A stretch of DNA of 64,000 bases from positions 1-64,000 of IMG/VR virus record IMGVR_UViG_3300032893_000010. One strand, written 5' to 3'. Positions 18,689 to 48,140 of the stretch are shown here, one piece after another. Each line of letters opens with the position of its first letter. The first letter of the stretch is position 1. Made by a program: the position numbers and the translations under genes. The stretch comes from a virus. Under the pieces are notes generated by a model. It saw only the letters and a list, made by a program, of their open reading frames with translations, had not been told where the DNA came from and did not search any database.

Positions 18689-18945
18689 TGGCAGTAATGC
18701 ATTTTCTGTGGCTTATATTTGATCTTCCATCTGGTTCTGTATGGAGTAATCTTGTAGCATCTGTACTGTGGGGAACAGCGGCTTACATGATCATGAGAGT
18801 GATGAAGACAAAACTTGTAGATAGTTTAGATGGAACTATAGACAAGAAACTCTCATTTCATCATGAGCAGATAAAGAATCATATGGAGAACAAGATGTCT
18901 GAGTATTTCGGGAGAGAACATGTCGAGACAGAAAAAGAACCCTAA
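18685..18945 (+). CDS. Small membrane protein
   Basis: Hydrophobic N-terminal segments; GGAGGT RBS. Confidence 0.55.
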   Translation: MMAVMHFLWLIFDLPSGSVWSNLVASVLWGTAAYMIMRVMKTKLVDSLDGTIDKKLSFHHEQIKNHMENKMSEYFGREHVETEKEP

Positions 18946-19078
18946 GCCGGATGATCTGAGGCTTTCTTACTCTTGCCGGAAGCGCGGTTGCGATTGCGGA
19001 TGCTTCGCTTGTAATCAAGGATCTGACCATTGCTTCAATCATTACAGGAGCTGCCATGAGGGATGTTCTAATACATGA
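18920..19078 (+). CDS. Cys/His microprotein, CxCxCxxC family copy 1 (52 aa)
   Basis: MSRQKKNPKPDDLRLSYSCRKRGCDCGCFACNQGSDHCFNHYRSCHEGCSNT; GGGAG RBS. Confidence 0.75.
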   Translation: MSRQKKNPKPDDLRLSYSCRKRGCDCGCFACNQGSDHCFNHYRSCHEGCSNT

Positions 19079-19200
19079 ATAATTGCGGGTATCCAGGTAA
19101 GTGCTTCTGCAAGTGCAAAGATTGCAATGAGCCTTTCATTAACCTTCCGTCTCATTGCGGGAATCGCGGCAAAGGCTGCCACTGGTATTGTGAGAAATAG
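19075..19200 (+). CDS. Cys/His microprotein copy 2 (41 aa)
   Basis: MNNCGYPGKCFCKCKDCNEPFINLPSHCGNRGKGCHWYCEK; ATGA overlap upstream, stop abuts the next ATG. Confidence 0.75.
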   Translation: MNNCGYPGKCFCKCKDCNEPFINLPSHCGNRGKGCHWYCEK

Positions 19201-19734
19201 ATGTCAAGATTAGACTGGAAAAACGGCAGATGGACTGCTGATGTAGAGACAGACCAGATATACATGGCCATGAGAGGATGGCGCGATGTGTCTGGTGACT
19301 GGATTGATTACTACAGATTCGATGCTGCATCGACTACGATAAATGATATATACGATGAAGCTGTAAGCCCGGGTCGTGTATTCGGTTCACCAGTCAGGAT
19401 ACCAGTTCTTCATGTCACAGTAATTCCCGGCGATAATCAGAATACTGAATATGGTTTCTATTTCAATGACACTCTTGTTATCATCTGCGCTTTCGATCAG
19501 TTCACCATGACTGGCATGGATTATGCTGATGTCCTTCAGGGTAACTACCTTAAGGACAGGGTTTACTATAACCAGAAAATATTCAGGACTCTTTCTATGA
19601 CACCGGCAGGTAAGATACAGCAGCGACCTACCATGATAAGAATAGAATGCACTCAGCTTAAGCCTGACGAGCTTGTTGAGGATTCTCAGTACTTGCCTTG
19701 GTCACAGCAAATTAACCCAGGAACTACACCATAA
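19201..19734 (+). CDS. Putative neck/head-closure protein
   Basis: Position in the head-tail module; DIYDEA and KDRVYY..KIF motifs. Confidence 0.55.
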   Translation: MSRLDWKNGRWTADVETDQIYMAMRGWRDVSGDWIDYYRFDAASTTINDIYDEAVSPGRVFGSPVRIPVLHVTVIPGDNQNTEYGFYFNDTLVIICAFDQFTMTGMDYADVLQGNYLKDRVYYNQKIFRTLSMTPAGKIQQRPTMIRIECTQLKPDELVEDSQYLPWSQQINPGTTP

Positions 19735-20078
19735 TGAATCAAAATCTTCAGCCACTACAATTTTCTGAACTATATCATGCTACTAGAGCAAGCAGACTAG
19801 ACTCCATTAAAGAAACTGGACTGACAGCAAGTGAGTACTCTTCTGCTAATCCTGTTCTAACGTCAGATCACTCGTTGGCTACAATGTACGCTCGTGGCAA
19901 CATGATAAATGGTGGCGAGACTCCTGGTATAGTCACGGTTCGCGTCCCATCTGATAAAACATCTGAGTATCTTCATGAAGATTCAACAGCTCATAAATCT
20001 CATGGAAACTCAGCTTTCGGTATAAAGAAACCGCTGCCATCACATATGATCCATTCAGTAGAAACTCTAGAAGATTAA
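19734..20078 (+). CDS. ADP-ribosyltransferase/Tpt1(KptA)-fold protein
   Basis: LYHAT.....SI...GL, LTSD...A..YA and C-terminal LPSHMI motifs. Confidence 0.55.
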   Translation: MNQNLQPLQFSELYHATRASRLDSIKETGLTASEYSSANPVLTSDHSLATMYARGNMINGGETPGIVTVRVPSDKTSEYLHEDSTAHKSHGNSAFGIKKPLPSHMIHSVETLED

Positions 20079-20087
20079 GGACCCTAA

Positions 20088-21206
20088 ATGCCAACATTGC
20101 CAGTGGACGGACAAACAGGATGGGGAGACACTCTTAACGCTTATCTCAACGCCTTAGACTCAGAAGCTAACACTACGCAGACTAACCTCTCAAATCACGC
20201 TGGTAATACTCCTGCTGATCCTCACGGTGACAGGGCTTACGCTCAGTCATTAGTTAACCCTATTATCAACGGGGTTAACCAGGCTAACGGGTTCGTGCAG
20301 CTTAACTCATCAGGGCTTATCCCTTCGAATCTAATCTCAGGTAGTGGTTCTGGTGGCGGCTCATCCATCACGGGCGGCATGTACACTGGAGTATTTGACG
20401 CTGTTGCCACTTACGGTGCTGTAACAAATAACGGTGCAGATCAATCGTCAGCCATACAGTCTGCGCTTAATGCTGCCTCTTCGGCAGGAGGCGGAATCGT
20501 ATGGCTAGGTCCGGGTACTTACTCGCTGTCTAATTATATTGTGATGCCTAGTAATACATGGCTGATGATGAGCAAGGGAGCCGTTCTGTCCAGGATTCCT
20601 GGAAGTCCTAACCCTAAATACTTGATAACGAACGTTCAATTCGGTACTTCTAATACTCCTGCTACTAACATAAAGATAAGCGGTGGCAGGCTAGATGCTG
20701 TGGGAGCTAATTCCATGTCGTCTCAGTGCACGCCGTTGTTCCTCATACAGTCCAATCAGAATGTAATAGAGGATATCTATTTTAATAATGTGTTCAATAA
20801 TCCTGCTGTTGAGATAAACGGATGCGTGGATACTAAGATCAGCAGTTGTTACTTCGATGGCACTGGGTCTAATAACTTTTTCAGTCAGCCTTCGGTACCG
20901 GCAGTAAGAATTAATTCTTCAGTTACATCTACGACTCCTACTGGACTCGGCAACTTCGTGTACAACAACACTGTTACTAACAATTGCCGCCTGACAGATT
21001 CATCTACTAAGACTCTGTCAACTACTTACGGGTGCTATGGTGCTTTAATAGGAAGTGATAAGACTTCTTCGTATCACAGCGATCATATTTTCGTTACTAA
21101 CTGTGCCACAGAATATGCTAGCACTCTGGGCAGTGCCGTGTATGCGAATAGTCAGTGGACATATTCCGTTAATGCGAATAACCTGTTCTATGAGTCAGCG
21201 CCTTAA
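20088..21206 (+). CDS. Pectate-lyase-like beta-helix tailspike/depolymerase
   Basis: YGAV.NNGADQSSAIQSALNAA...GGGIVWL.PGTY followed by Asn-rich beta-helix coils. Confidence 0.7.
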   Translation: MPTLPVDGQTGWGDTLNAYLNALDSEANTTQTNLSNHAGNTPADPHGDRAYAQSLVNPIINGVNQANGFVQLNSSGLIPSNLISGSGSGGGSSITGGMYTGVFDAVATYGAVTNNGADQSSAIQSALNAASSAGGGIVWLGPGTYSLSNYIVMPSNTWLMMSKGAVLSRIPGSPNPKYLITNVQFGTSNTPATNIKISGGRLDAVGANSMSSQCTPLFLIQSNQNVIEDIYFNNVFNNPAVEINGCVDTKISSCYFDGTGSNNFFSQPSVPAVRINSSVTSTTPTGLGNFVYNNTVTNNCRLTDSSTKTLSTTYGCYGALIGSDKTSSYHSDHIFVTNCATEYASTLGSAVYANSQWTYSVNANNLFYESAP

Positions 21207-21284
21207 TGATATACTAGTCCTGTAAGTATTCCATGCGAGAGCTTACGTACCATCGCCTTATACCTGTTCAGACTGGAGTTTGCT

Positions 21285-22007
21285 ATGCCCTGGCTTCTCA
21301 ACGAAGATGCGGCGCTCAAGAAAAAGCTGCAAGGTCTACAGGTATTTGATGCGGATGCACCAGGAGGAAGAAAGGTTCCTGTCAGATTCAGGATGCCAGA
21401 AGTAGAACCGGCTGATGTATCTTATCCTATTATCATCATCGAACACGACGGCTGGTTTCCTGCTAATGAGAGAGAGCATAGAGGATATGTGAAGTATCCT
21501 TATGCTCCTGAGGGTTATGCTCCATGGTGGGATGACACAGGACCGGCAACTACAGTATATGACCCTAACGACGGTCCTTACTGGGGTTTCATTCCCATTC
21601 CTTACAATCTTGATTACACTATTTCTGTGCTGGCCAGATTCCAGACTGACCACATGATGCCCTTGATTTCCAAGTTGGCATCTTATGACAGGCTTCATCC
21701 GAAGTTCGGCTTCTTAGACGTTCCTCAGGATGGGACTAAGAGGACCATGCAGCTTCTTGGCGGCCCTGCTCCTATCGACATGTACGATGATAACGGCAAA
21801 AGGGTATTCAGGACAATATATAAGGTAAGAGTGTTCTCTGAGCTTGTAGAAGAAGTTGTTCAGTATGCTCTCGCTAAGCAGATTAACTTGGACGTGAGCG
21901 TCTATCAAGATTTATCAGACATTACAGAGGCAGAGTTGACTGAGGCTAGAGGTTTGCTCTCCGTTGGTACTGCTGCTGCGTGGAATGTCGCACAACCACT
22001 AATATAA
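21285..22007 (+). CDS. Tail terminator/completion protein
   Basis: Immediately before the sheath; YPII.I and PIPYNLDY.I motifs. Confidence 0.6.
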   Translation: MPWLLNEDAALKKKLQGLQVFDADAPGGRKVPVRFRMPEVEPADVSYPIIIIEHDGWFPANEREHRGYVKYPYAPEGYAPWWDDTGPATTVYDPNDGPYWGFIPIPYNLDYTISVLARFQTDHMMPLISKLASYDRLHPKFGFLDVPQDGTKRTMQLLGGPAPIDMYDDNGKRVFRTIYKVRVFSELVEEVVQYALAKQINLDVSVYQDLSDITEAELTEARGLLSVGTAAAWNVAQPLI

Positions 22008-22017
22008 CGGAGAAACA

Positions 22018-23580
22018 ATGGCAACAATACCCGAGAGCCCAGGCGTATATATTACTGAGTCTCTTACTCCGCTAACTAACAATAATATTCCTGGTGAGGC
22101 TATAGGAGTAATAGCTGCTGCTTACAATCAGGGACCAGATGTTCCTACTATGGTAACTAGCTGGAATCAGTATGTACAGAAGTACGGCACTTTCCAGCAG
22201 GCGTCTCCTAATACATCACTTCACTATGCCGTGTATCAGTTCTTCAACAACGGAGGATCACGGTTAATCGTTCTCGCTGTTCCTAATACCGATGCAGTAA
22301 CAGCCACATTGACATTGCAGGATATAAATACTCCTGCTGATAATGTGATGACTGTATCTGCTATTTCTCCGGGAGCATGGGCTAATTCGATTTACGTGGC
22401 CATAACATCAGCGGGAAACACAGGAAGATTTAATGTTCAGATTTACAGCGGAGGAACTTCCTCATCTAATCTAGTAGAGAACTTCATTGATCTCTCGATA
22501 AATCCTGCTGATCCCAGGAATGTAAGCAAGATACTTAACTCGCCTACTTATGGTTCCAATTACATAAATGTGACTGTATCAATTCCTGGTACTTATACTG
22601 CCGGGATTAATGATCCCGCTCTGATAAGTGCTACTCCTCTGACAGGAGGAAGCAACGGAGTGACGGCACCTAATCTTGGAACTGCGATTCCTCTTCAGCT
22701 TGATAAGCTTCAAGGTACTATACTTAACGTTAACGTCCCAGGGCTTGACAACTCCACAACCCTGAACACTCTCATCTCTTGGGCAATAGGAAGAGGGGAT
22801 GTCATGTTCGTAATTGACGGTCCTCCTCCTTCATTCCCTGAAACATCAGCTCAGGTAGTGCAGAACTATCTTAACCTGATAACTGGTGGTACACCGATTA
22901 ATAACTCAACGTACGCCGCTTTGTATGCTCCCTGGATTCAGATTATCGACCCGGCTTCGTCAATTCCCGGTGCTTCAGTTTGGGTTCCGCCAGGCGGTGC
23001 TGTTCTAGGAGCCTGGAGTGCTACAGATAATCAGGTTGGCGTGTGGCAGACTGCGGCTGGCGTCAGGTATGGCAAGATAAAGCTGGTTAACATAGAAGCA
23101 TTGTTCACATCATCAGACTTGGATACTCTTAACGTCAACAATATCAATGCTATAAGGTTCGTTCCTAACTATTATCCTGCGATCATGGGCGGAAGAACCC
23201 TTGAGCAGGGCTACCCAGATAGGTATGTGGCTGTAAGAAGAATGCTCATGAAACTTGAGCATGACTTTACTTACCTGCTTCAGCCAGCGCTGTTCGAGCC
23301 TAACGATGCACAGCTATGGTTGCAGATAACTCAGATCCTGACAAATTACCTGACTCAGTTAATGCAGCAAGGTGCCCTGGGTGGTACTACTCCCGACACA
23401 GCATTCCAGGTTATCTGCGACAGCTCTAATAACACGCCTGCTACAGCGCAGGCAGGTATAGTAAATGTAGCTGTAGCTGTAGCTTTGCTGAGCCCGGCAG
23501 AATTCATCTTGATTAACATAAGCCAGTTCCAGAACACCGGGCAGACAACAATAACAACTTCACCAACGGCAGGGAGCTAA
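22018..23580 (+). CDS. Contractile tail sheath protein
   Basis: PGVYITE, YAPWI, PPGGAVLG, GGRTL, RYVAVRR, LFEPND, PAEFI motifs. Confidence 0.92.
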   Translation: MATIPESPGVYITESLTPLTNNNIPGEAIGVIAAAYNQGPDVPTMVTSWNQYVQKYGTFQQASPNTSLHYAVYQFFNNGGSRLIVLAVPNTDAVTATLTLQDINTPADNVMTVSAISPGAWANSIYVAITSAGNTGRFNVQIYSGGTSSSNLVENFIDLSINPADPRNVSKILNSPTYGSNYINVTVSIPGTYTAGINDPALISATPLTGGSNGVTAPNLGTAIPLQLDKLQGTILNVNVPGLDNSTTLNTLISWAIGRGDVMFVIDGPPPSFPETSAQVVQNYLNLITGGTPINNSTYAALYAPWIQIIDPASSIPGASVWVPPGGAVLGAWSATDNQVGVWQTAAGVRYGKIKLVNIEALFTSSDLDTLNVNNINAIRFVPNYYPAIMGGRTLEQGYPDRYVAVRRMLMKLEHDFTYLLQPALFEPNDAQLWLQITQILTNYLTQLMQQGALGGTTPDTAFQVICDSSNNTPATAQAGIVNVAVAVALLSPAEFILINISQFQNTGQTTITTSPTAGS

Positions 23581-23582
23581 CA

Positions 23583-24155
23583 ATGCCGGTACAGCAGAAG
23601 TCATCTATAGCTCACTTAGCTACTGATCCTCTACGTAATTTCAAGTTCCTGGTAACATTGCAGCCGCCTAACGGAAAATCGCTGCCGTTAGGATTCATGT
23701 CTGTTTCAGGACTTAACATGACTGTAGATGTCATAGCATATCGTGAGGGTGGCTATAATACGACAACGCAGAAAATGCCGGGACAGGCAGATTTCTCTCC
23801 TATAACATTGTCAAGGGGAGTGGCTGTAGGAACTCCTGTAGATTACCATTGGATGCAGCAGCTATTCACGGTAATGCAGGGAACAGGAACAGCAGGAGAT
23901 GGTAATAATTTCAGGTGGAGTGTCCTGATTCAGATCCTAGATCATCCTGTTACTACAGCGACAGTGGCAGTAAAGGCAGCGTTCCAGATTTACAACGCAT
24001 GGCCGACATCTATTGCCTATTCAGACCTTGATGCAGGCGCCAACCAGCTATTCATAACACAGCTAGTATTAGCTCATGAAGGATTCGACTATTCGCTTGC
24101 CACATCTATAGGAAATTCCGACGCACCGAACTTCCCGGCGACCCCAAGCAGCTAA
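23583..24155 (+). CDS. Tail tube protein (T4 gp19/Afp-like)
   Basis: DPLRNFKF, SVSGL, YREGG, ITLSRG, NAWP, LAHEG. Confidence 0.92.
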   Translation: MPVQQKSSIAHLATDPLRNFKFLVTLQPPNGKSLPLGFMSVSGLNMTVDVIAYREGGYNTTTQKMPGQADFSPITLSRGVAVGTPVDYHWMQQLFTVMQGTGTAGDGNNFRWSVLIQILDHPVTTATVAVKAAFQIYNAWPTSIAYSDLDAGANQLFITQLVLAHEGFDYSLATSIGNSDAPNFPATPSS

Positions 24156-24173
24156 TTTTAACAGGAAGAATAA

Positions 24174-25070
24174 ATGGCTAACACAAGAACCACTAAAAGA
24201 CCAGTATCAGGTACAGGAAATGACTGGATTAATCCTATGGATAACCCTGACAGGGCTAACGCTGAGATAGCAGCGGTCCTGAATCAGGCATCCTCATCAG
24301 ACATGCCTGTTATAAGCTTCCCGGCAGATGACATAGTTAATTTGCCGGGGGGCATTGTAAGAAAAGACACCATAATAAGGACAGCACAGGTCAGGGAACT
24401 GACAGGAGCAGATGAGGAAGCTCTCGCAAGGGCGAGTCAGTCTATGAATCCTTTTGTTTTCATAGACAGGCTTCTCAAATGCGGGGTTACCAGGATAGGC
24501 GATGAACCTTCAACGGAAACAGAGAAGCTTCTGAGTCATATGCTTATCGGAGATCGTGAAGCTCTGATACTAGGAATCAGGCAGGCTACTTACGGGGATA
24601 AATTAGAAGTCCCGGAGTGGGCTTGCACTAATTGCGGAGTAAAATCTGATCTTGAGATGGAGATATCAGATATACCAGTGGTGAAGCTGATTGATCCTGC
24701 TAACGAGATATCATTCAGGGTTCCTCTCAGGAAGGGAGGGTTCGCTCAGGTTAATCTGGCTACGGGAGTAGACCAGCTTGCCACGTTTGAGAAGCCTGAA
24801 CTTACGCAAGCTCAGAGGGAGACTATTCTTATATCTAGATGTGTGAGTACTATAACAGACAGTCAGGGCATGGAACATTCCATGGCCGGCTTTCCGTCTC
24901 TATCTAGGGATATGAGCATACCAGACAGGCACGCTATTCTCAATGCTCTCAGGGACAGGCAGCCAGGACCGAAGTATGATCAGGTGAAGTATACGTGCGA
25001 TTCTTGTAATGAGGATGTCACTGTGACAGTGACGATAGGTAACTTGTTTCTCGACTTCGGATGGGTCTAA
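24174..25070 (+). CDS. Tail assembly chaperone/baseplate hub assembly protein (T4 gp26-like)
   Basis: VRELTGADEE, GDRE.LILGIR.ATYG, two CxxC pairs; lies between tube and tape measure. Confidence 0.7.
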   Translation: MANTRTTKRPVSGTGNDWINPMDNPDRANAEIAAVLNQASSSDMPVISFPADDIVNLPGGIVRKDTIIRTAQVRELTGADEEALARASQSMNPFVFIDRLLKCGVTRIGDEPSTETEKLLSHMLIGDREALILGIRQATYGDKLEVPEWACTNCGVKSDLEMEISDIPVVKLIDPANEISFRVPLRKGGFAQVNLATGVDQLATFEKPELTQAQRETILISRCVSTITDSQGMEHSMAGFPSLSRDMSIPDRHAILNALRDRQPGPKYDQVKYTCDSCNEDVTVTVTIGNLFLDFGWV

Positions 25071-25245
25071 CGGCATAAATTACGCTGAGATGTATTACCA
25101 GGTTGAAAGCCTGGTAGATCATTACGGATGGACTGTAGGTTATGCTAAATCCCTGAGCGTGAGAGAAAGAAAACACTGGTACAGGAGAGTTCAGGTAAAG
25201 AAAGAGAGATTGAGGTCTAATGACAACTCCAGCGCCACCAGGTAA
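25039..25245 (+). CDS. Second chaperone ORF, probably reached by +1 frameshift
   Basis: +1 frame encodes ...YYQVESLVDHYGWTVGYAKSLSVRERKHW..., typical of the small pre-tape-measure ORF. The frame opens just before TTG-TTT-C at 25044-25050. Confidence 0.55.
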   Translation, partial: VTCFSTSDGSNGINYAEMYYQVESLVDHYGWTVGYAKSLSVRERKHWYRRVQVKKERLRSNDNSSATR

Positions 25246-28246: not shown

Positions 28247-29043
28247 TGGGTACGACTCCCATATCTCAGCCTGCTTTTGATAAAAGGATATCGACTCTTG
28301 CTTTTCCTCTTACTGGAGGCCAGTACGGAACCATACAAAGAGGGTTCATGGTGTGGGAGAAAGCGTGGGGTCCTTATTCAGGTAAAGCCATGGTCAATTT
28401 CCTGTACAATCCTTCATCTGTGGAAGCTGACTATTCTATGTCTAACGGAGGAGTAGCATCAGCTTATCTTTTCCCCACAGCATTTAATGATGTAGACTTG
28501 AGAGTTCCTCTTAACCAGACTGTAGAGTTCTCCCTGCTTTTCGACAGGACTTATGAAGTGCAGGGAACTTATAATTCTAATGGAGCTGCTGGTACGGCTA
28601 ATAATCCTGGCCAGAATGATCCTAGGGTGGTCGGGGTTCTGGCGGATATCATGGCTATGCAGCAGTTCACTGGAATGTTCACAGCCTACTCTACGGGAAA
28701 CACGGGAACTACTTCTCCTTCTCCTGGTGCTCTCACAGGATGGCAGGGAATATTGCAGCTGATACCATCTTACGTGTATTTCGGTGGCGGTGGTTCAGCG
28801 TCTACATCTTTATGGTACTACGGTTACATAACTGAGTGGGATGTTACTGTTACTCACTGGACTCAGTATATGATTCCTATGAGATGCGTAATGGATATAA
28901 CCATGACAATGCTTCCTCCTAATGGTTCCACTCCTAAATTCCAGAGTGTTAACGGAACTACTAATTTCCAGCCTACAGCAGGTTCTCCTACGCCGTATAC
29001 TAATACTTCATCAATACCATCGACGGGAGTGTCCGGAAGGTGA
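28246..29043 (+). CDS. Tube-initiator/baseplate hub protein
   Basis: FLYNPSSV, LLFDRT and GYIT...V..THW....PMRC; follows tape measure. Confidence 0.6.
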   Translation: MGTTPISQPAFDKRISTLAFPLTGGQYGTIQRGFMVWEKAWGPYSGKAMVNFLYNPSSVEADYSMSNGGVASAYLFPTAFNDVDLRVPLNQTVEFSLLFDRTYEVQGTYNSNGAAGTANNPGQNDPRVVGVLADIMAMQQFTGMFTAYSTGNTGTTSPSPGALTGWQGILQLIPSYVYFGGGGSASTSLWYYGYITEWDVTVTHWTQYMIPMRCVMDITMTMLPPNGSTPKFQSVNGTTNFQPTAGSPTPYTNTSSIPSTGVSGR

Positions 29044-38650: not shown

Positions 38651-38665
38651 TTTATCCTGAACCTA

Positions 38666-38695
38666 TTGACACAGCCGACCCTTCTGTGTTACCAT
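38666..38695 (+). promoter_or_regulatory. Sigma70/HrdB-type early promoter
   Basis: TTGACA (38666-71), 18-nt spacer ending TG-T, TACCAT (38690-95), at the structural/early module boundary. Confidence 0.7.
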
Positions 38696-38731
38696 GATAG
38701 CCGGGCCGATATCGGCCCGGCTATCATTTTT
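38694..38731. terminator. 34-bp perfect palindrome with T-tract
   Basis: ATGATAGCCGGGCCGAT/ATCGGCCCGGCTATCAT (38694-38727) then TTTT. Confidence 0.55.
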
Positions 38732-38741
38732 CGGAGGGTAC

Positions 38742-39356
38742 ATGATTATATGCATTACATCCACTGGTAAAGTACAGAAGCAGTTGATATACGATCTGAT
38801 AGAAGATGCTTTCATGCCTTATGCAGGCAAGGAGCTGACATTGGATGATGAAGAAAGAGATCTGGTCTGCCAGATTCAGGCAGCGGAGGTTCCCGTCTAT
38901 GACCTGGCCCGCGCCTTGTCTCCTGTGATGCCTCTAGAACGCGCTGAGAGCCACGCAGAGGCACTCCCGGACCCTTCCGAGGGTGATCCTGTGCTTGAGG
39001 AGTCCGAAGCCGTAGAATTGATCTCAGAGTGTCTGCTCGGGGAGGACTTCATCAGGGCCGAGTGGATAAGATATTTTGATAAGCTTTCGCTGGCAGAACT
39101 TAAAGGAATAGAGGAAGAGTTGCATAACGCCATAAAAGTAAGAGAAACATTCACTGAATACAGGAATGGCACCAGGTTCGCAGAAAAAGGTCCAGACTAT
39201 ACGGATAAGGGAAGTGTCCCTGAGGGAATAGACAGGACGATAAAATATTACAAGTCTCCTGCGGGCAAGATGAGAAAAGCCGGTCCCAGATCTAAGCCGA
39301 GGCCGAAAGAAGAAGTTGTTTACCTGACTCCTGAAGAAGAATCAGCACTGGAATAA
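38742..39356 (+). CDS. Hypothetical early protein
   Basis: GGAGG RBS before ATG 38742; acidic N-half, basic C-tail. Confidence 0.6.
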   Translation: MIICITSTGKVQKQLIYDLIEDAFMPYAGKELTLDDEERDLVCQIQAAEVPVYDLARALSPVMPLERAESHAEALPDPSEGDPVLEESEAVELISECLLGEDFIRAEWIRYFDKLSLAELKGIEEELHNAIKVRETFTEYRNGTRFAEKGPDYTDKGSVPEGIDRTIKYYKSPAGKMRKAGPRSKPRPKEEVVYLTPEEESALE

Positions 39357-39463
39357 TGGATACTTATATTCATCCTGAGAAATGCAGGTGCAGATGCGAT
39401 CCCTGTAGGGCTAGAATTCATTGCAGCAACAGGAAAAACGGATGCCTGGTTCCCGGCTGCTGA
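39356..39463 (+). CDS. Cys/His microprotein copy 3 (35 aa)
   Basis: MDTYIHPEKCRCRCDPCRARIHCSNRKNGCLVPGC; TAATG coupling. Confidence 0.75.
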   Translation: MDTYIHPEKCRCRCDPCRARIHCSNRKNGCLVPGC

Positions 39464-39594
39464 TCACGGCAAAAATCGTATGCTACAGGGATCATTGTCA
39501 TTGCAATTGCGGTGCATGCTCACCTAAGACGGCATACCAGAACAGGGTACACTGCTGGAATCATAATTCTGATTGTCATAAAGGATGCTACTGA
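39442..39594 (+). CDS. Cys/His microprotein copy 4 (50 aa)
   Basis: MPGSRLLITAKIVCYRDHCHCNCGACSPKTAYQNRVHCWNHNSDCHKGCY; AGGA RBS. Confidence 0.7.
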   Translation: MPGSRLLITAKIVCYRDHCHCNCGACSPKTAYQNRVHCWNHNSDCHKGCY

Positions 39595-39807
39595 AAAATA
39601 AGAAGCACTGTAGCAGGATCAAGTCAACTGGACTACAGTGCTCCAAGAGGCAGGAGGGGGACCTCTTAACACAATGATATCACAAGGAGAATATAGTGAG
39701 CTGCATAGAGAACGAGATGGGTACGTGCATAAGATCTATCTTTCACCTGGGTAAATGCGAAGGGCAGGAATGCGTTCTGGAAGACTCATCGAATAGGGAG
39801 GAACTAG

Positions 39808-40254
39808 ATGAAGTACGGAGACTTGTCAAATAAGACTGCTCCGAGGGTTTACGTGGTATTCGAAGGACTGGTAGCTTCAGTACCGGACGATAATCTTCAG
39901 GAGTATTCTGACATGATCACGGCCAGGAAAGTTGACTGGTTCAAGGCTATCAAATGCTACCAGTTGAATGACATGGTTTGCGCTAAGTTAATCTGGCTTA
40001 GCTTTCATAGAGATGTTAATTTCACTGTGGTATCGTGGCTCCCTAAGGAAGCATCTTACGGTATCGATGTCTTCTTGCAGAAGAACGGCATACCTGCGGG
40101 GCTTATCATGTCAACACCCTATGAGATATCAATGGAACTTGTGAGAAGACCTGATGTAGTGGCGATATTAGATCCTGATCCATGGCATGTCCTTACTTTC
40201 GGGTCGAAGGCTAAGACTGCTTTTAACGCTGAAGACATAGGAGGAATATTTTGA
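39808..40254 (+). CDS. Hypothetical protein, HAD-like fold possible
   Basis: VYVVFEGLV resembles a degenerate HAD motif I; GGAGG RBS. Confidence 0.5.
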   Translation: MKYGDLSNKTAPRVYVVFEGLVASVPDDNLQEYSDMITARKVDWFKAIKCYQLNDMVCAKLIWLSFHRDVNFTVVSWLPKEASYGIDVFLQKNGIPAGLIMSTPYEISMELVRRPDVVAILDPDPWHVLTFGSKAKTAFNAEDIGGIF

Positions 40255-40481
40255 TCTACCTGAAGCCCTCATATTCCATATTGCAAATAGACATGTATCC
40301 AGGATGCTGTGATGAAGATTGCGATGAACAGCATGATCAGGAGGATGATGTCGCCAGCGGTTTCTGGTTAACGTGTTATCTGCACGGAGAGATTGAATGG
40401 TTCGATGTTGAATCAGATATTCCGTGGGAAGAACTAGAAGAATCTGCTGACGAGCACATGCTATCGTTTCTTTATTCTTAG
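40251..40481 (+). CDS. Small acidic hypothetical protein
   Basis: AGGAGG RBS, TTG start; CxxH motif. Confidence 0.5.
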   Translation: MIYLKPSYSILQIDMYPGCCDEDCDEQHDQEDDVASGFWLTCYLHGEIEWFDVESDIPWEELEESADEHMLSFLYS

Positions 40482-40489
40482 GAGGAACT

Positions 40490-40684
40490 ATGAACTGGCT
40501 AGCTATCAATGACATAAATCATTTCGAGTTGACTACTGATGAACTAGGAGCTTTATATACTCATTGCCCAGATCACGGTGTATTCCGTGTAATAACAGGA
40601 GGAAGACCTATTAAGCTGAGAGAAATATTCAAGGCTATTGCTGAGCATACTGATGAAAGGCATAAGGATGGGCAGGGAATCTAA
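40490..40684 (+). CDS. Small hypothetical protein
   Basis: AGGAGG RBS; CPDHG motif. Confidence 0.5.
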   Translation: MNWLAINDINHFELTTDELGALYTHCPDHGVFRVITGGRPIKLREIFKAIAEHTDERHKDGQGI

Positions 40685-41273
40685 GCTTCGTAATCCAAGG
40701 CCGGAATCAAGAACTGAGTATTCTAACGGGGACAGGAAACTGTATGACAGGGACAAGATGCCAGATGGGTTAGATTCTGACATCTGGTCCCTTACCCTGC
40801 TGTTCGAGCAGCTAGCGGAGAAAGATGGCTATTCGGTTCCTGCCAGGCCGATTGTCTACACTGAGCTTTACAACCGCGTCTCAAAGGACCCTGATCTATC
40901 CCAGTTACTACGCTCTGATGACGCTCAATATACGCGCACGCGCGTTACCACCGTATATGATGGTACGCCGTATCTCCTGGTGGAGAAGATGATACATCTG
41001 TACTGGGATATGAGTAATGGTTTTGATTACTACCATAGTATAAATAACTTCTGTAGTATAGAAGTTTTCAACTACCTTAAAGACTATGTAACAGAGACTA
41101 TGAAAAGAGAGAAACTTCATAACACAGGCAGGAGGGAGGAAATAAGGCTGGGCAGTATCAAACCATCTCACAGGACTGAAGAGGAAAGAATCCTGTACCA
41201 TCTCATGAACGACCCCAGGACAGAAGAAGAGTCGAGGAAGAAAATTGAATACTGGCAGAGAGATCATACATAG
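40668..41273 (+). CDS. Hypothetical protein upstream of helicase
   Basis: ORF 40638..41273; the internal ATG (MGRESK) is the likelier start. Confidence 0.5.
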   Translation: MGRESKLRNPRPESRTEYSNGDRKLYDRDKMPDGLDSDIWSLTLLFEQLAEKDGYSVPARPIVYTELYNRVSKDPDLSQLLRSDDAQYTRTRVTTVYDGTPYLLVEKMIHLYWDMSNGFDYYHSINNFCSIEVFNYLKDYVTETMKREKLHNTGRREEIRLGSIKPSHRTEEERILYHLMNDPRTEEESRKKIEYWQRDHT

Positions 41274-42486
41274 CATACTCAGCGGTGGTGACATCAGGGT
41301 AGTATTAGACGCGGGACTTAACAGATCCTGGCTGGAGGGAGAGAATACTGGTTCCAGCGTAATATTCTCAGGGATAGATAAGCAGGCTTACAAATGGCTG
41401 CTGAATCATTATGCAAGACATAGGAACATACCAGCTCTGGGAACATTCAGGCAGCATTTCCCTGAGGAATCTTATAAATTCTCTGGTACTGTGATACCTG
41501 TAGGGGAACTTACAGAGCTGGCAGAGGAAAAGGTAGCATCTTTCCTTGTAGCGGATGTGATCGGCAGGGCAATAGATCTTCATGATAAAGGAAACATGAG
41601 AGAAGCTGCTTCCCTGCTGGGAATAGAAAGAAACATAAAGTACAGGAAGACAAGAGCTGACGACCTCGGCTCAGCTTCTTTTGACATAGAGGCTTTTCTC
41701 AGTAAAGAACTTGAGATGGGAATACCTCTGGGCATACCTGACATAGATGAGGAGTTCTATGGTTTCCAGCCTGGGATGCTGATAACTTTACTGGGAAGGC
41801 AGAAATCAGGAAAATCCTGGACTACTATCAACTCAGCCTTGCATGCCTGGGCTCAGGGGTATACGGTACTTGTATTCTCGGTTGAGATGGATACTACTAT
41901 GTTTCACCAGAGAGTGATGTGCCTGGGGGCTAAGGTTTCTCCTTCCCGGATGAGAAGAGGAAGACTATCCGCAGAGGAGAAGGAAAGAGTCAGGATATTT
42001 CATTCAGATCTTGTTCAGGAAGAGGGAACTTTCCTTATCTCTAAAAGAAAAACTGGTATCACTGTCGATGAGATAAAAGAGGAGGTTGCTCTTTATAATC
42101 CTAACATCGTGTATATTGACGGGTTTTCTTTCATGAGGGACACTGTGTCGGGAAGGACTACTTCTGACTGGCAGGCTAATGAGAACGTTGCTTATGCCCT
42201 GAAGGAATTCGCCATGGAAGAAGAGATAGTAGTATTCGTTAATACCCAGGTCCAGGAAAAGCAGTACAGTTCCAAGCACGGCATCGAGGCTAAGACTATT
42301 GCTTCCGGCACTGGTCTTCTCAAGGCTTCTGATCTTGTCCTGGGCCAGGATAAAGACGGAAACGACATGACTATAAGCACGGTGTATTCTAGATATGAAT
42401 GGCCGGAGACTGTTGTCGTTGATGTTGACTGGGACACCATGAATATGGTAACTGTCAAAGCTAAACTAGAAGAGGAAGGTATATGA
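41245..42486 (+). CDS. dnaB: DnaB-like replicative helicase
   Basis: GFQPG.LITLLGRQKSGKS (Walker A), FSVEM, IVYIDG (Walker B), ASDLVL. Confidence 0.85.
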   Translation: MNTGREIIHSILSGGDIRVVLDAGLNRSWLEGENTGSSVIFSGIDKQAYKWLLNHYARHRNIPALGTFRQHFPEESYKFSGTVIPVGELTELAEEKVASFLVADVIGRAIDLHDKGNMREAASLLGIERNIKYRKTRADDLGSASFDIEAFLSKELEMGIPLGIPDIDEEFYGFQPGMLITLLGRQKSGKSWTTINSALHAWAQGYTVLVFSVEMDTTMFHQRVMCLGAKVSPSRMRRGRLSAEEKERVRIFHSDLVQEEGTFLISKRKTGITVDEIKEEVALYNPNIVYIDGFSFMRDTVSGRTTSDWQANENVAYALKEFAMEEEIVVFVNTQVQEKQYSSKHGIEAKTIASGTGLLKASDLVLGQDKDGNDMTISTVYSRYEWPETVVVDVDWDTMNMVTVKAKLEEEGI

Positions 42487-42585
42487 TGTTCAGGTTCGTG
42501 AAGAAGATAATAGCAATGGAGATAGCTGAGTTAATCTGCATGACCCAGCAGTATACTCAGGCGATGAGCGAAGAGGATAAGAAAG

Positions 42586-43551
42586 ATGTCAAGTTCGGGT
42601 TCGCGCTACCAGACAGGAGCATCATCGATTGAGTCACTGCTCGGAGAACTGGGAATAAAATATGACATCTCAGGTGACGAAGCTTATTCCAGTTGCCCTT
42701 TTCATTATCCTGACAGGCATGCTAGCTGGTATGTTAACATCAGATCCGGTTTGCATCATTGTTTCAGTTGTGGCGCTAAGGGTAATCTCGCTCATCTTGT
42801 TTCCTTCGTCAAGAATATCTCGTATCCTGAAGCGGTAATATACGTTAACGAGATAATAGGATGGGCAAGGGCAGATAGGTGGAGGGAGGATTATGAGAGC
42901 AGTAGTTATGCACCGCCTGCATACAGGATATCTGAGACGGATCTGGCAATGTTTGACTCCCCGCCTGTGGATTACATGGAACAAAGAGATCTCAGAGAAG
43001 AATACGTAAAGCTGTTTGGCGTTAAATGGAACACGGAAAATAAATCGTGGATACTTCCTATAAGAGACCCGTATACTTTCGATCTATGGGGATGGCAGGA
43101 GAAATTGGCTGATGGACGAGGATTCAGTAATAATCCAAGAGGTATTAAAAAATCCAAGACGTTGTTTGGCATTGACGTTGCTACAGATGGCGGCACCATT
43201 ATCCTGGTCGAGTCGCCACTTGACGCAGTGCGTGTGTCTTCTTTCGGAAGAGGAACTGGATTGGCTTGCTCGGGCCTACAGGTCAGCGATATCCAGCTCT
43301 CCTTTGTATTCGAACGCTCAGAACGAGTTGTACTGGCGCTTGATAACGATACTCCAGGAATACGAGATACAGCTAGAATATGCTCAGAGTATAAAGGACG
43401 CCCTCTGTGGATATACGACTATGGAATGAGCAAAGCTAAAGATCCTGGAGAGCAGACAGATGAGGAAATAATATGGAGCTTGGATAATATGAGATCAGGA
43501 TTGAGATGTCTAGCAGAACATGAAAAGAAACTTAAAAATCTACAGAGATAA
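42586..43551 (+). CDS. dnaG: DNA primase (CHC2 Zn finger + TOPRIM)
   Basis: CPFH...HCFSCG; LVESPLD; LALDND..G; KDPGE. Confidence 0.88.
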   Translation: MSSSGSRYQTGASSIESLLGELGIKYDISGDEAYSSCPFHYPDRHASWYVNIRSGLHHCFSCGAKGNLAHLVSFVKNISYPEAVIYVNEIIGWARADRWREDYESSSYAPPAYRISETDLAMFDSPPVDYMEQRDLREEYVKLFGVKWNTENKSWILPIRDPYTFDLWGWQEKLADGRGFSNNPRGIKKSKTLFGIDVATDGGTIILVESPLDAVRVSSFGRGTGLACSGLQVSDIQLSFVFERSERVVLALDNDTPGIRDTARICSEYKGRPLWIYDYGMSKAKDPGEQTDEEIIWSLDNMRSGLRCLAEHEKKLKNLQR

Positions 43552-43690
43552 CAATGACTGGTGGGTAGGATGGTACAGAGGGCCGAATCATCACTATGTT
43601 ATATTGATACCCACGATAGTAATAAGATGGGAGAAGACCTTATCTAATGATAAGGTCTTGGCTCAAAGAAATGCGTTGGTGAAAAAATGA
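43520..43690 (+). CDS. 56-aa hypothetical protein
   Basis: MKRNLKIYRDNNDWWVGWYRG...; fills the gap between primase and MTase. Confidence 0.45.
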   Translation: MKRNLKIYRDNNDWWVGWYRGPNHHYVILIPTIVIRWEKTLSNDKVLAQRNALVKK

Positions 43691-43701
43691 GGAATAATTA
43701 A

Positions 43702-44409
43702 TTGCGCTACGTGGGAGGAAAGAGCAAGTTAGCTAAGAGAATTGCATCAGATATCCTAGCTCGCACTGACAAAAGAGATGTACTGATAGAGCCTTTCGTC
43801 GGCGGCGGGGCTGTCCTGGCAGAACTAGCACCAGCTTTCGATTGCGTATATGCTTCTGATATTCATGAGGATCTTATGCTCATGTGGAATAAGTTCTGGC
43901 ACTATAACTGGGAACCTGATAACTACTGCTCAGAACAGGAGTACCAGAGACTGAGATATGAGAAGCCGTCAGCCTTGAGAAGGCTGGTAGGATTCGGGCA
44001 GTCTTTCGGAGGTAAATGGTGGGGAGGTTATGCCAGGGGAAAGAAACCCAACGGTGAAGAAAGAAATTACCTTGACGAAACCATAAGAAATATAAAGAAT
44101 ATAATCAGCAAGCTCCCTGAGAATTCTCACTTTACTATCTCCTCATACAAAGACTGGAACCCGGTAGCAGGAGACGTTATCTACTGTGATCCTCCTTACG
44201 CCAGTACTCAAGGATATGGAGGCACTGATAGTTTCGATTCTCAAGAGTTCTGGAAAGTCATGGACGAGTGGAAGCAATTAGGTGCTGATGTATTCGTATC
44301 AGAATATAATGCTCCTGACAGCTGGAAAGAGATAGCATCTTATCCTCATAGGATGGAACTGTCTCTGATACAGGATAGGAGACAGACAACAGAAAGATTG
44401 TGGCATTAG
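43702..44409 (+). CDS. DNA adenine methyltransferase (Dam/D12 class)
   Basis: RYVGGK, EPFVGGG, VIYCDPPY. Confidence 0.88.
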   Translation: MRYVGGKSKLAKRIASDILARTDKRDVLIEPFVGGGAVLAELAPAFDCVYASDIHEDLMLMWNKFWHYNWEPDNYCSEQEYQRLRYEKPSALRRLVGFGQSFGGKWWGGYARGKKPNGEERNYLDETIRNIKNIISKLPENSHFTISSYKDWNPVAGDVIYCDPPYASTQGYGGTDSFDSQEFWKVMDEWKQLGADVFVSEYNAPDSWKEIASYPHRMELSLIQDRRQTTERLWH

Positions 44410-47093
44410 TGTTTAACGGTAAGCTGCATCCATATCAGGAGGAAGTAGTAAAGAGATTCCTGGAACGCAAGAGCTTATTACTAGCCTATGGTTGCGGGAC
44501 AGGAAAGGCCCAGAGTATCAGTGAGCCTGTCCTAACTCCGAATGGATGGAAAGAAATAGGAAAACTTCAAGTTGGAGACTATGTAATAGGGAAGGGCGGT
44601 AAACCGACTGAGGTAACGGGGGTCTTCCCGCAGACGGATAGATCAATCTATAAAATAACTATGAATGACGGGTCATATACTTTTGCTACGAAAGATCACC
44701 TGTGGTCCGTACGGCGTAGAGCTAAAGACAACTGGCATGTGAAGACCACCCAGGAATTGCTAGACTCAGGTTTGAGCATTCAAAGAAAAAGTCATGATGT
44801 CAGGACTAACGGACGAGCTTCTGACGCTCCGGGTTGTAAATATCAGATACCAGTGGTAGATGCTGTAGCATTCGGGTATAGCAAGCTTCCAGTTGACCCG
44901 TATTTGCTGGGAGCTATTTTGGGAGACGGGTGCGTCACAGCATCTAATCCTACTATTACTTTTTCTACGGCTGACTCTGAAATGATAAGTAATATGGAAG
45001 TTCTGCTTCCTGATGGAGTTTCTATCAAGAAAGGTGACGGATACAATTACAGGTTAGTCTCTACAAGAGGAAAGCCTAATCTACTGCTTGATGCTGTAAG
45101 AAGTTTAGGAATTTACGGTACAGATTCAAGCACAAAGTTCATTCCAGAAAACTACTTAATGGCTTGCACACCTGACAGGATTGCTCTGTTGCAAGGTTTA
45201 ATGGATACTGACGGTACTGTAGACAAAAGACAACCTTCATCAATATCTTTTTGTACGGTAAGTGAGGCTCTTAAAGACGGGGTAGTCGAGTTAGTTCAGT
45301 CTTTGGGTGGTACAGCCAGGGTTACTTCTAAAATTCCTGTCCTTAAATATAAAGGCGAGTATAAAAAAGGAAAGCTGGCATATATGGTGAGCATACGACT
45401 TCCTAGCGCAGTTCAGCCGTTTAGGTTAACTAGGAAAGAAGCTCCGTATACGCCAGTAAATAACCTAACTCGTTACATAAAAACCATAGAATATAGCCAC
45501 GAAGAAGATTCTGTTTGCATATCAGTAGCAGCAGAAGACAACCTATACGTAACCAGGAACTATATTGTCACGCACAACACAGTAATGTCTATTGCCATTG
45601 CAGAGGAACTTCTAGCATCTGGTGAAGTAGATCAGGTGCTAGTTCTCTGTCCTGCTTCACTCAAATATCAGTGGCGCGATAAGATAAAACAGTTCACGGA
45701 CAGTTCAGTTATGGTAGTAGACGGTCCTAAGCGCATAAGGACAGGACAGTACGCATCTCAACGGGGAGAAATACCAGCTTGTGAGTATCTGATAGGCTCA
45801 TACGACGGTGTTATCTATGATCACGAGGACATGTCAGCAGTGAATCCAGGCATGGTCATAGCTGATGAAGTGTCAGCTATCAAGTCTTTCAAGGCTCAGG
45901 GATCCAAGAGAGTAAAGAAACTGTTCGGTAAGACACCTTACCGTCTTGGCCTTACAGCTACTCCTATAGAGAACAAGCCAGAAGAATTATATTCCATCAT
46001 GCAATGGATAGACCCCACAGTATTAGGAAGGTACGATTTATTTGAGCGAGCATACATCACGAGAAATTCAAAAGGATGGGTCGTGGAGTATAAAAACCTT
46101 GACGTTCTACGGGAGCGGATGGGAGATGCACTTAGCAGGAAAACAAGACATGATCCTGAGGTACGACCATACCTTCCAGACGTTGATGAAGCTACCTGGG
46201 AAGTTCACATTGATTCTATTCCGTTGGGGAAAGCGTATGAGAAGATATGCCAGGATATGCTGTCACATATTGAAGAGAATGCATATAAATATGACAGTGA
46301 CATAAACCTGATGAACATGGTTCCTGGTTTCGATGATTCAACACCAGATGGTGAGCTTATGTCCATGCACATGTGCGCTGAGATGCTGCTTAATCATCCT
46401 GAACTTGTCATATGGTCAGCTAATATGTACGAGGGCGATTCTCCTGAAGGCTCTGCCTATGCTAAGCACCTGAAAGATTCAGGTCTCCTGTACAGCATTC
46501 ATAACAGTCCTAAGATGGATCTGCTACTGGAAGAGCTGGATCTGCTACTGGCCGATCCTGATAGTAAGGTGATAATAGTCTCCAGGTATAAGTACATGCT
46601 TGACATTATCAGCATGCATCTCAAGGGAGAGTATAAGCACGTGAAATTCACGGGAGACATGACAGCGACACAGAAGAACATAGCAGTTGGCTTGTTCAGC
46701 CAGCCTGAGTACAGGATTTTCCTGACATCACATGCAGGCGGCTACGGTCTTGACTTGTACATGGCTGACTACCTGATTAACTATGACATTCCATGGTCGG
46801 CGGGAACTAAAGACCAGATTAACTCAAGACATGTAAGAGCATCGTCAGGCTTCGATAAGGTGTATGTACGTAATCTGGTAACTAAAGATACTGTGGAGGA
46901 GAGGAAGTACAGGGTGCTGGAAAGAAAAGGACAGATAATATCATCTGTGATGGATGGTGCTGATATAACGACAGTCGATGTCGGATCGGATTATCTCAGG
47001 ACGCACCTGGAGAAAGTTCTAGGAAAACCCTTGACAGACCGGGCCGCCCGTGCTAAACTGGGTAGCAGTCAATTTACTGAGGAGGCGTCATGA
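44400..47093 (+). CDS. SNF2/DEAD-like helicase, intein-containing
   Basis: LHPYQ, GTGK/T (split by intein), IADE, LTATPIEN, GYGLDL, QINSR..R. Confidence 0.9.
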   Translation: MALVFNGKLHPYQEEVVKRFLERKSLLLAYGCGTGKAQSISEPVLTPNGWKEIGKLQVGDYVIGKGGKPTEVTGVFPQTDRSIYKITMNDGSYTFATKDHLWSVRRRAKDNWHVKTTQELLDSGLSIQRKSHDVRTNGRASDAPGCKYQIPVVDAVAFGYSKLPVDPYLLGAILGDGCVTASNPTITFSTADSEMISNMEVLLPDGVSIKKGDGYNYRLVSTRGKPNLLLDAVRSLGIYGTDSSTKFIPENYLMACTPDRIALLQGLMDTDGTVDKRQPSSISFCTVSEALKDGVVELVQSLGGTARVTSKIPVLKYKGEYKKGKLAYMVSIRLPSAVQPFRLTRKEAPYTPVNNLTRYIKTIEYSHEEDSVCISVAAEDNLYVTRNYIVTHNTVMSIAIAEELLASGEVDQVLVLCPASLKYQWRDKIKQFTDSSVMVVDGPKRIRTGQYASQRGEIPACEYLIGSYDGVIYDHEDMSAVNPGMVIADEVSAIKSFKAQGSKRVKKLFGKTPYRLGLTATPIENKPEELYSIMQWIDPTVLGRYDLFERAYITRNSKGWVVEYKNLDVLRERMGDALSRKTRHDPEVRPYLPDVDEATWEVHIDSIPLGKAYEKICQDMLSHIEENAYKYDSDINLMNMVPGFDDSTPDGELMSMHMCAEMLLNHPELVIWSANMYEGDSPEGSAYAKHLKDSGLLYSIHNSPKMDLLLEELDLLLADPDSKVIIVSRYKYMLDIISMHLKGEYKHVKFTGDMTATQKNIAVGLFSQPEYRIFLTSHAGGYGLDLYMADYLINYDIPWSAGTKDQINSRHVRASSGFDKVYVRNLVTKDTVEERKYRVLERKGQIISSVMDGADITTVDVGSDYLRTHLEKVLGKPLTDRAARAKLGSSQFTEEAS
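44508..45578 (+). mobile_element. Class-3-type (Ala1) intein with LAGLIDADG endonuclease, 357 aa
   Basis: Starts AQSISEPVLTPNGW; DHLW (block B Trp); SVCISV (block F Cys); IVTHN/T end; LLGAILGDG and LLQGLMDTDG motifs; inserted in Walker A. Confidence 0.9.
47031..47059 (+). promoter_or_regulatory. Sigma70/HrdB-type early promoter inside the helicase 3' end
   Basis: TTGACA, 17-nt spacer ending TG-C, TAAACT; GAGGAGG RBS follows. Confidence 0.75.
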
Positions 47094-47224
47094 AAACCAC
47101 GGTCCCGGCGAAGTGCCCCAAGTGCAAGAGCACTCACATTTATGAGGTAGCAAAAGATGAAAATACCTATACTGTAGTGTGGGCTTGCTATGACTGCGGT
47201 CATATATGGAGGATAAGCACATGA
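47090..47224 (+). CDS. Zinc-ribbon microprotein (44 aa)
   Basis: MKTTVPAKCPKCKSTHIYEVAKDENTYTVVWACYDCGHIWRIST; GGAGG RBS. Confidence 0.7.
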   Translation: MKTTVPAKCPKCKSTHIYEVAKDENTYTVVWACYDCGHIWRIST

Positions 47225-47370
47225 TGCCGGTAATGAGATGTCCTAGGTGCAACGAGTGGTGCAGTACAGCCAATCAGTTCCTTTTCAGGACAAGAGAAGA
47301 CGAGAAGAATGACAGGCCGGGCGTCATGTACAATGACTGCAAGTATTGCGGGCATCAATGGCCAGCATAG
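47221..47370 (+). CDS. TFIIS-like zinc-ribbon microprotein (49 aa)
   Basis: MMPVMRCPRCNEWCSTANQFLFRTREDEKNDRPGVMYNDCKYCGHQWPA; GGAGG RBS and ATGA overlap. Confidence 0.65.
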   Translation: MMPVMRCPRCNEWCSTANQFLFRTREDEKNDRPGVMYNDCKYCGHQWPA

Positions 47371-47786
47371 AAGAACATGAGAGATGGGCTTTATCCTATC
47401 TTCTCGTGACTCATGACGAGAATCATATCAAGGAGAAGAGATCTGAGCTTAGGAGTAATCTTCATGACCACATCCTGGAGCACGGAGAAGAAGACGAAGA
47501 CGGCAATCTTATAGTCTATTTCGATGAGCCTAAGACTGTGGATGGGGAGACCTGGTTCAAGGGCCTGATGCTCCAGCGCAGGGTTTCAGAGTATGTGGAT
47601 GAGGATAAGGTCTGGGAGCTGGTGAGGAAACACGATCTCGGGGATATGTGCCTGAAAACTGTTGAGGTTCTGGACCTGGACATGTTCTATGCTGCCAACC
47701 AGCAAGGCTTGATCTCAGATGAAGAACTGGATTCTGTATTGACACAGGAGAAATCGTGGGCGCTCGTGAAGATAAAGGCTCTGTAG
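47358..47786 (+). CDS. Hypothetical protein
   Basis: Coiled coil then GE.D..GN and QRRVS..D motifs; ATG 47358. Confidence 0.55.
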   Translation: MASIEEHERWALSYLLVTHDENHIKEKRSELRSNLHDHILEHGEEDEDGNLIVYFDEPKTVDGETWFKGLMLQRRVSEYVDEDKVWELVRKHDLGDMCLKTVEVLDLDMFYAANQQGLISDEELDSVLTQEKSWALVKIKAL

Positions 47787-47902
47787 CGCATGAGCTGAAG
47801 ATGTGCTCCTGTGATTGCAAGGAATGTGACGCAGGCAAGGCGATAAATAACAAGTGGTATCACTGCCTTAAGCATGAGAACGGATGTCATCGGATATGCT
47901 AG
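47756..47902 (+). CDS. Cys/His microprotein copy 5 (48 aa)
   Basis: AGGAG RBS + GTG; ...KMCSCDCKECDAGKAINNKWYHCLKHENGCHRIC. Confidence 0.7.
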   Translation: MGAREDKGSVAHELKMCSCDCKECDAGKAINNKWYHCLKHENGCHRIC

Positions 47903-48033
47903 GGTGGGGAAGCAAGAAGCCTGAGCACGAAAATTATGACATAAGCCTTTGCCGGTGCTTGTGCAGGAGGTGCGATTCAGTAGTGGCTTTTGATCATTGC
48001 CAGAACACGCGAAAAGGATGTCATATGGGATGA
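47884..48033 (+). CDS. Cys/His microprotein copy 6 (49 aa; alternative start 47896)
   Basis: ...ISLCRCLCRRCDSVVAFDHCQNTRKGCHMG. Confidence 0.7.
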   Translation: MSSDMLGWGSKKPEHENYDISLCRCLCRRCDSVVAFDHCQNTRKGCHMG

Positions 48034-48140
48034 ATTTCCTGAAGAATAAGAAATGTGATTGCCTTTGCTTTGAGTGCTGTAGTTTCATTCATTGCGGAAG
48101 ACATAAGAAAGGTTGTCATAAGGATTGCGACCATGACTGA
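48030..48140 (+). CDS. Cys/His microprotein copy 7 (36 aa)
   Basis: MNFLKNKKCDCLCFECCSFIHCGRHKKGCHKDCDHD; AAGGA RBS, ATGA overlap. Confidence 0.75.
   Translation: MNFLKNKKCDCLCFECCSFIHCGRHKKGCHKDCDHD

Follow-up and report, generated by a model that had tools for sequence, protein, structure and literature searches.

The DNA stretch analysed here (the window) comprises the initial 64 kb of an IMG/VR phage record of 116,130 bp (IMGVR_UViG_3300032893_000010), which CheckV rated complete, and it carries seven very small genes for microproteins rich in Cys and His. A preliminary description had placed seven plus-strand open reading frames (ORFs) of 35-52 aa at three loci, and all of them were found in the ORF listing. 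These seven ORFs are real genes, which share a family signature, are under purifying selection and match no known family. The window itself gave no match to GenBank phages by megablast and blastn. TerL of the phage showed 53% identity to the nearest cultured relatives, which are BRock-type Streptomyces phages of 112-116 kb, and this hints weakly at an actinobacterial host.

The genes are arranged as a pair, a second pair and a triplet, all on the plus strand, and the first pair is located among tail genes. Microprotein 1 (18920-19078; 52 aa, 8 Cys and 3 His; E value 5e-9 with the family hidden Markov model, HMM) begins with ATG, has GGAG 5 nt upstream and overlaps the end of an 86-aa gene (18685-18945) by 26 nt. 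Microprotein 2 (19075-19200; 41 aa, 8 Cys and 2 His; E 6e-12) overlaps microprotein 1 through ATGA, and its TAG stop adjoins the ATG (19201) of a conserved 177-aa structural gene, forming TAG-ATG at 19198-19203. The second pair consists of microprotein 3 (39356-39463; 35 aa, 7 Cys and 2 His; E 8e-7), which overlaps a 220-aa gene (38694-39356) through TAATG, and microprotein 4 (39442-39594; 50 aa, 8 Cys and 5 His; E 4e-10), which overlaps microprotein 3 by 22 nt and has AGGA 7 nt upstream of its ATG at 39442; an alternative TTG at 39421 would give 57 aa. The triplet starts with microprotein 5 (47756-47902; 48 aa, 7 Cys and 4 His; E 1.5e-10), which uses GTG with AGGAG 5 nt upstream and overlaps the end of a 146-aa gene (47346-47786). 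Microprotein 6 (47884-48033; 49 aa, 6 Cys and 3 His; E 9e-10) starts within microprotein 5 with a 19-nt overlap and has no Shine-Dalgarno (SD)-like motif. Microprotein 7 (48030-48140; 36 aa from ATG 48030, 8 Cys and 4 His; E 6e-9) overlaps microprotein 6 through ATGA and has AAGGA 11 nt upstream, with alternative starts at ATG 48018 and TTG 47997, and its stop overlaps the likely start ATG (48133) of the next conserved gene by 8 nt. The junctions, which are ATGA, TAATG, TAG-ATG or overlaps of 8-26 nt, are typical of translational coupling, in agreement with the layout coupled to neighbouring genes that was described before.

A six-frame scan with C.C.C..C-x(2-14)-HC-x6-C retrieved exactly these seven ORFs, all on the plus strand, and 100 shuffles of the window gave no match at all; the bare C.C.C..C motif occurred nine times in the window versus a shuffle mean of 0.12. 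Alignment of the seven left four Cys, then His-Cys, then one Cys invariant, which upholds the claim that only ligand positions are conserved among them. The further Cys reported for six of the seven sits 2-4 residues past the last motif Cys, the exception being the ORF at 47884, which ends before it. The Cys lying 4-5 residues upstream of C-x-C is absent from three copies (39356, 47756 and 47884), eight Cys are present in four of the seven, and the number of His ranges from 2 to 5. No DNA repeat underlies the family, as had been stated: the copies showed no DNA similarity beyond their physical overlaps, and the Cys codons alternate between TGC and TGT.

The family was first counted as seven, and the whole genome holds nine. 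The family HMM found exactly nine copies in the 116,130 bp, all on the plus strand with E values from 6e-12 to 8e-7, and the extra two are at 109915-110028 and 110421-110561 of the record. An SD-like motif at suitable spacing precedes seven of the nine, compared with 27% of random ATGs and 62% of the starts of long ORFs, and the two copies without it start inside, or at the stop of, the upstream gene. All copies are on the coding strand, occupy gaps between conserved genes and stop 0-5 codons past the last ligand. Loci two and three are in the replication region near a primase-helicase gene and are co-oriented with it, while the fourth locus begins about 4 kb upstream of the terminase gene, with one copy 3.4 kb upstream of it, directly before a gene that looks like HNH. 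Two of the arrays had also been placed just downstream of early promoters; this was not borne out, since sigma-70-like matches near the arrays are no commoner than in shuffles.

Two other ideas about the copies were dropped. Spread by a mobile cassette was rejected because the copies share neither flank repeats nor DNA similarity. A tenth look-alike at 103209-103331 of the genome (L038 3209-3331) has C-x-C-x-C-x2-C, nine residues, then H-C-x4-C; the HMM does not find it and it is probably a chance match.

Some neighbouring genes deserve mention. The HNH-looking gene (genome 110574-111050; L038 10574-11050) encodes 158 aa with a His/Cys pattern of that type. It comes directly after microprotein 9, with the large terminase gene about 3 kb further downstream; its conservation extends to contigs L043 and L061, and it has no Pfam or PHROG match. 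A different small Cys protein, of 45 aa and with four Cys (C-x7-C-x9-C-x4-C), is encoded directly 3' of the second pair, at 39696-39833 on the plus strand. Its ORF begins with GTG, which AAGGAG precedes by 6 nt, and it overlaps the start of a 148-aa gene at 39808. For the ORF listed at 48055-48552, the start is most likely ATG 48133 and not GTG 48055; its homologues in two related phages (G001 and G002) begin at matching residues.

A lack of conservation of the frames in related phages had been named as a refutation, and the outcome was mixed. At the three window loci conservation failed in three complete phages related to the window phage (G001, G002 and G003, the last being IMGVR_UViG_3300044656_000027), which have no family member anywhere in their genomes, whereas the family is kept at the fourth locus in relatives and across more than 100 homologues, which are under purifying selection. 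The same HMM that finds nine copies in the window phage finds none in four cultured Streptomyces phage relatives. The 177-aa protein next to the first pair shares 77% identity with its homologue in G001 and 43-46% with those in G002 and G003; in G001 the two genes on either side of the first pair lie end to end. The 146-aa and 165-aa genes flank the triplet in the window, and in G001 and G002 the interval between their homologues spans about 256 bp and contains no such frame. At the fourth locus, four contigs (L043, L061, L060 and L069) carry members at the same position, beside homologues of the same neighbours. Absence at three loci in relatives together with presence at the fourth means that the genes are accessory and sit in variable slots. 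The distribution of the family is patchy.

The content of these slots differs among phages. Between the 294-aa and 177-aa structural genes, both conserved, lies a variable accessory slot (window 18597-19200; L009 3787-4020), which holds an 86-aa ORF plus two microproteins in the window phage and only a 77-aa ORF in G001. In L010-L012 the same slot, upstream of the 177-aa homologue, has a GNAT-like ORF of about 100 aa. In G003 the interval between the 146-aa and 165-aa homologues (minus strand, within 21200-24100) is occupied by a small ORF that is unrelated but also rich in Cys, with His and several C-x2-C pairs.

The family extends far beyond this phage. From contigs of uncultured viruses and metagenomes, we collected at least 114 distinct members. 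Three complete phage genomes (G000, G009 and G010) carry 8-9 copies, with eight each in G009 (166 kb) and G010 (46 kb), and the G010 array lies downstream of the DNA polymerase gene in the same orientation. Arrays of about ten genes occur, with 8-9 members in L047, 10 in L224 and 15 motif matches (repeats included) in L299. The C-terminal half is fixed and ends with H-C-x2-H-x2-G-C-H-x2-C. The N-terminal half starts with C-x4/5-C-x-C, often within C-x2-A-G-x-C-x-C, and then has two further Cys at variable spacing. The modal make-up of the 114 members is 8 Cys (68 members) and 3 His (60 members), giving 11 Cys plus His (52 members). In 18 members C-x-C-x2-C replaces C-x-C-x-C-x2-C, and a His follows 3-5 residues later, which fits replacement of a ligand; a ligand count that stays constant despite shifting spacing is what a metal site predicts. 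The window ORFs match the profile built from members of other phages and carry H-C-x6-C-(H)-x2-C near the C-terminus, 0-10 residues before the stop, with two variants: the ORF at 47884 stops short of the final Cys, and Leu replaces the last His in the ORF at 39356.

Protein databases contain very little of this family. When 1.84 billion representative proteins were scanned with the HMM, only five relatives of 43-67 aa were found; a word-indexed protein search gave one protein, and none of five copies of the window phage looked up in a collection of 15 billion proteins was present. The family is missing from such databases because the genes fall below the limits of gene callers. At the DNA level, a pattern for H-C-x2-H-x2-G-C-H-x2-C matched 47 stretches in viral contigs, at least 119 in metagenomes and at least 120 in cellular genomes. 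Most of the viral matches, and the metagenome matches on 27 of the 119 stretches listed, proved to be genuine small ORFs, frequently arranged in tandem. The cellular matches are almost all off-frame chance matches, with at most one or two plausible members among the 120 listed. Nothing real was found by tblastn of five members against 50,697 GenBank phages, and one match in Mycobacterium phage Dori was discarded as an off-frame chance match without Cys. The sharp signature offers a simple way to find members in six-frame translations.

Protein-level selection, which the preliminary description had proposed, was confirmed with orthologues. Orthologue pairs from related arrays (L047, L063, L080 and others) gave ratios of nonsynonymous to synonymous substitution rates (dN/dS) of 0.05-0.25 where dS was unsaturated, and in almost every orthologue pair the proportion of nonsynonymous differences (pN) was far below that of synonymous differences (pS). 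When the Cys and His columns were removed, the orthologues still gave a pooled pN/pS of 0.37 with an amino-acid identity of 0.70, which means that the loops are also constrained. Paralogues have only the ligands in common. The window copies are as close to members from other phages as to one another, so they represent old and distinct paralogue lines and not a recent burst of duplication.

The absence of a named family for this spacing was confirmed by scans of Pfam, NCBIfam and PHROGs, which were null even at permissive thresholds. In Pfam the seven ORFs had no match at E up to 10. The 39 aligned members matched neither the metallothionein model (PF02069) nor, at E up to 10, the zf_UBZ and zf-C2HC models, and zinc ribbon or other zinc-finger models in Pfam and NCBIfam gave no match. 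A profile search of the PDB returned at best E 1.4, to a loop of alcohol dehydrogenase, and the best score in the ESM Atlas (0.78) was below a meaningful level. Full-text literature searches gave no description of such a family. The family is undescribed, was met in this analysis almost exclusively in phage and metagenome DNA, and belongs to a known general type, the Cys/His microproteins with putative metal binding.

The closest known proteins resemble the family only partly. Cys and His together make up about 30% of the core (8 Cys plus 3 His in 38 residues), a density like that of metallothioneins, as had been noticed. The ligands of the bacterial metallothionein SmtA are Cys9His2. In SmtA four zinc ions form a cluster in which His also serves as a ligand and a zinc finger is embedded (PMC3323870). 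Like SmtA and BmtA, the microproteins are small, have a very high Cys density, few His and a similar ligand total (11 here), and are likely folded around a metal core. Unlike them, they do not match PF02069, have another spacing, come from phages and metagenomes, and occur in arrays as many divergent paralogues; their orthologues also keep the non-ligand residues, and no metal regulator adjoins the genes. The CXC and pre-SET domains contain Zn3Cys9 clusters. The C-x-C runs, with about 9-11 ligands in about 40 residues, suggest a similar multinuclear cluster with bridging thiolates, but in a comparison made through Pfam only there is no match, and the microproteins have His ligands and stand alone without a eukaryotic-type partner domain.

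Two phage systems are also comparable. In Bacillus phage G an expansion of about 35 copies of a zinc ribbon was described, and the products were proposed as transcription factors or DNA-binding proteins (2021, PMC7824862). Both cases have many diverged copies of a tiny, Cys-based and presumably zinc-binding protein in a phage. The phage G ribbons have four Cys and are limited to one jumbo phage, whereas the present family combines 8 Cys with 3 His, has a constant C-terminal motif and occurs across many uncultured phages of 46-166 kb that are unrelated to each other. Com of phage Mu, a small zinc-finger translational activator of 62 aa, has a single Cys4 finger and a known RNA target (PMC6483171). 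It is likewise a small phage zinc protein (putative in our case) encoded beside genes it could regulate, but no sequence similarity is known. Membership in SmtA-type metallothioneins or in the phage G zinc ribbons is not supported.

From the ligand pattern and density, the approximately eleven Cys/His positions probably hold metal ions. The products would be small and intracellular, with a fold that depends on metal ions, most likely two or three Zn(II) coordinated by about eleven Cys/His ligands. In sequence order, C-x4/5-C-x-C comes first, two further Cys and a variable loop follow, and H-C-x2-H-x2-G-C-H-x2-C forms the C-terminus. Zinc is the favoured metal, since the ligands combine His with Cys and include C-x2-C and H-x2-C knuckles; copper or an iron-sulfur (Fe-S) centre is less likely. 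The metal core would be constant, while loops and tails differ between paralogues and are kept between orthologues. Surfaces kept in orthologues and differing between paralogues argue for specific partners over bulk buffering of metal. Each paralogue would thus most plausibly bind its own macromolecular partner, of host or phage, during infection, and the set would be mini-binders carried in variable accessory slots. We favour this reading as a whole, that is translated accessory genes for intracellular metal-held proteins each with its own partner, only tentatively and at a little under an even chance. The roles put forward in the preliminary description (Zn/Cu buffering, anti-defence or host-takeover binding, hetero-oligomers) are likewise hypothetical.

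Several points weigh against it. The AF2 models reached only moderate predicted local distance difference test scores (pLDDT 62.8 and 73.4, with 39 and 53 homologues). The model has one short helix after the C-x2-C knuckle plus a beta bridge, and Foldseek searches of PDB and BFVD, as well as VIA, returned no similar fold, which carries little weight for a 38-residue model of moderate confidence. Three of the seven window copies are without one or two canonical ligands. A pair in the tail region and a copy upstream of the terminase gene mean that the timing of expression is not uniform. Tuning of metal affinity or recognition of nucleic acid would also be compatible with the purifying selection on the loops.

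One alternative is a phage metallothionein, which would mainly sequester or deliver Zn or Cu in infected cells and so feed phage metalloenzymes or starve or detoxify the host, with copy number acting as dosage. The Cys/His density close to that of SmtA speaks for it, and several copies per genome fit a dosage role; on the other side, neither the bacterial metallothionein model nor any Pfam family is matched, the conservation of non-ligand residues in orthologues and the distinct identities of paralogues are unneeded for a bulk buffer, and related phages manage without the genes, so we regard it as unlikely. Recognition of nucleic acid would make the products small zinc-finger regulators of transcription or translation, or other DNA/RNA-binding proteins, comparable with Mu Com and the phage G ribbons. 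All nine window-phage copies have a net positive charge (+1 to +8), the genes are tightly coupled to their neighbours, and a role as transcription factors or DNA-binding proteins was proposed for the ribbons of phage G (PMC7824862). Across the family, however, the charge is weakly positive and often negative (median +1; 10th-90th percentile -2 to +6), and such mixed charge argues against a uniform role in nucleic-acid binding. No model of a nucleic-acid-binding zinc finger was matched and no conserved basic patch lies outside the ligand motif, which makes this reading quite improbable.

Tandem arrays of short, diverse and Cys-rich ORFs also resemble the precursor arrays of ribosomally synthesized and post-translationally modified peptides (RiPPs), in which a maturase would cross-link the Cys of tandem diverse precursors. 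The C-terminus is conserved and the N-terminus variable, which is the reverse of leader-core precursors, and the invariant His residues point to metal ligands. A search for radical SAM genes (PF04055) found none in G000, G009 and G010, while it matched 14 of 14 control genomes. No precursor family of NCBIfam (SCIFF or ranthipeptide type) was matched, and the copies are scattered among structural and replication genes without a common neighbour. Because of the conserved C-terminus, the invariant His and the lack of a radical SAM gene in the three carriers, RiPP precursors are very improbable. It is hardly credible that the ORFs are not genes at all, as chance or off-frame patterns or broken pieces of a longer repeat protein. 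The ORFs are indeed below gene-caller cutoffs, and the five copies looked up were absent from the 15-billion-protein collection. Against this, none is expected by chance, they are limited to the coding strand, fill gaps and stop soon after the last ligand, and homologue frames are intact in dozens of contigs with pN well below pS, so that the selection data contradict it.

Should the products indeed be metal-held binders, each paralogue with its own target, they would supply new host-takeover or anti-defence factors of phages as well as a very small natural binding scaffold. We also consider, as a doubtful extension, that soil and wetland phages share a widespread library of metal-clustered mini-binders, in which a single Cys8His3 scaffold of 40 residues has given rise to many stable paralogue lines directed at different host or defence targets, gained and lost by phages as accessory cassettes; if true, phage proteins for host takeover or counter-defence would include a new class that is invisible to current annotation. 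We know of no phage metallothionein described previously, and if the family does buffer metal, its members would be the first to our knowledge.

Two groups of frames near the family were also noted. Six contigs of about 40% GC (L041, L044, L052, L077, L084 and L313) contain the same 54-aa frame, which has the C-terminal pattern and is without the N-terminal half of the family; this recurrent frame is probably an off-frame reading of a conserved gene. Relatives of 64-78 aa in L051, L065, L072, L074 and L075 have a conserved N-terminal extension (P-Y-D-P-x-K-D ...) followed by a variant Cys/His core, and they may form a subfamily.

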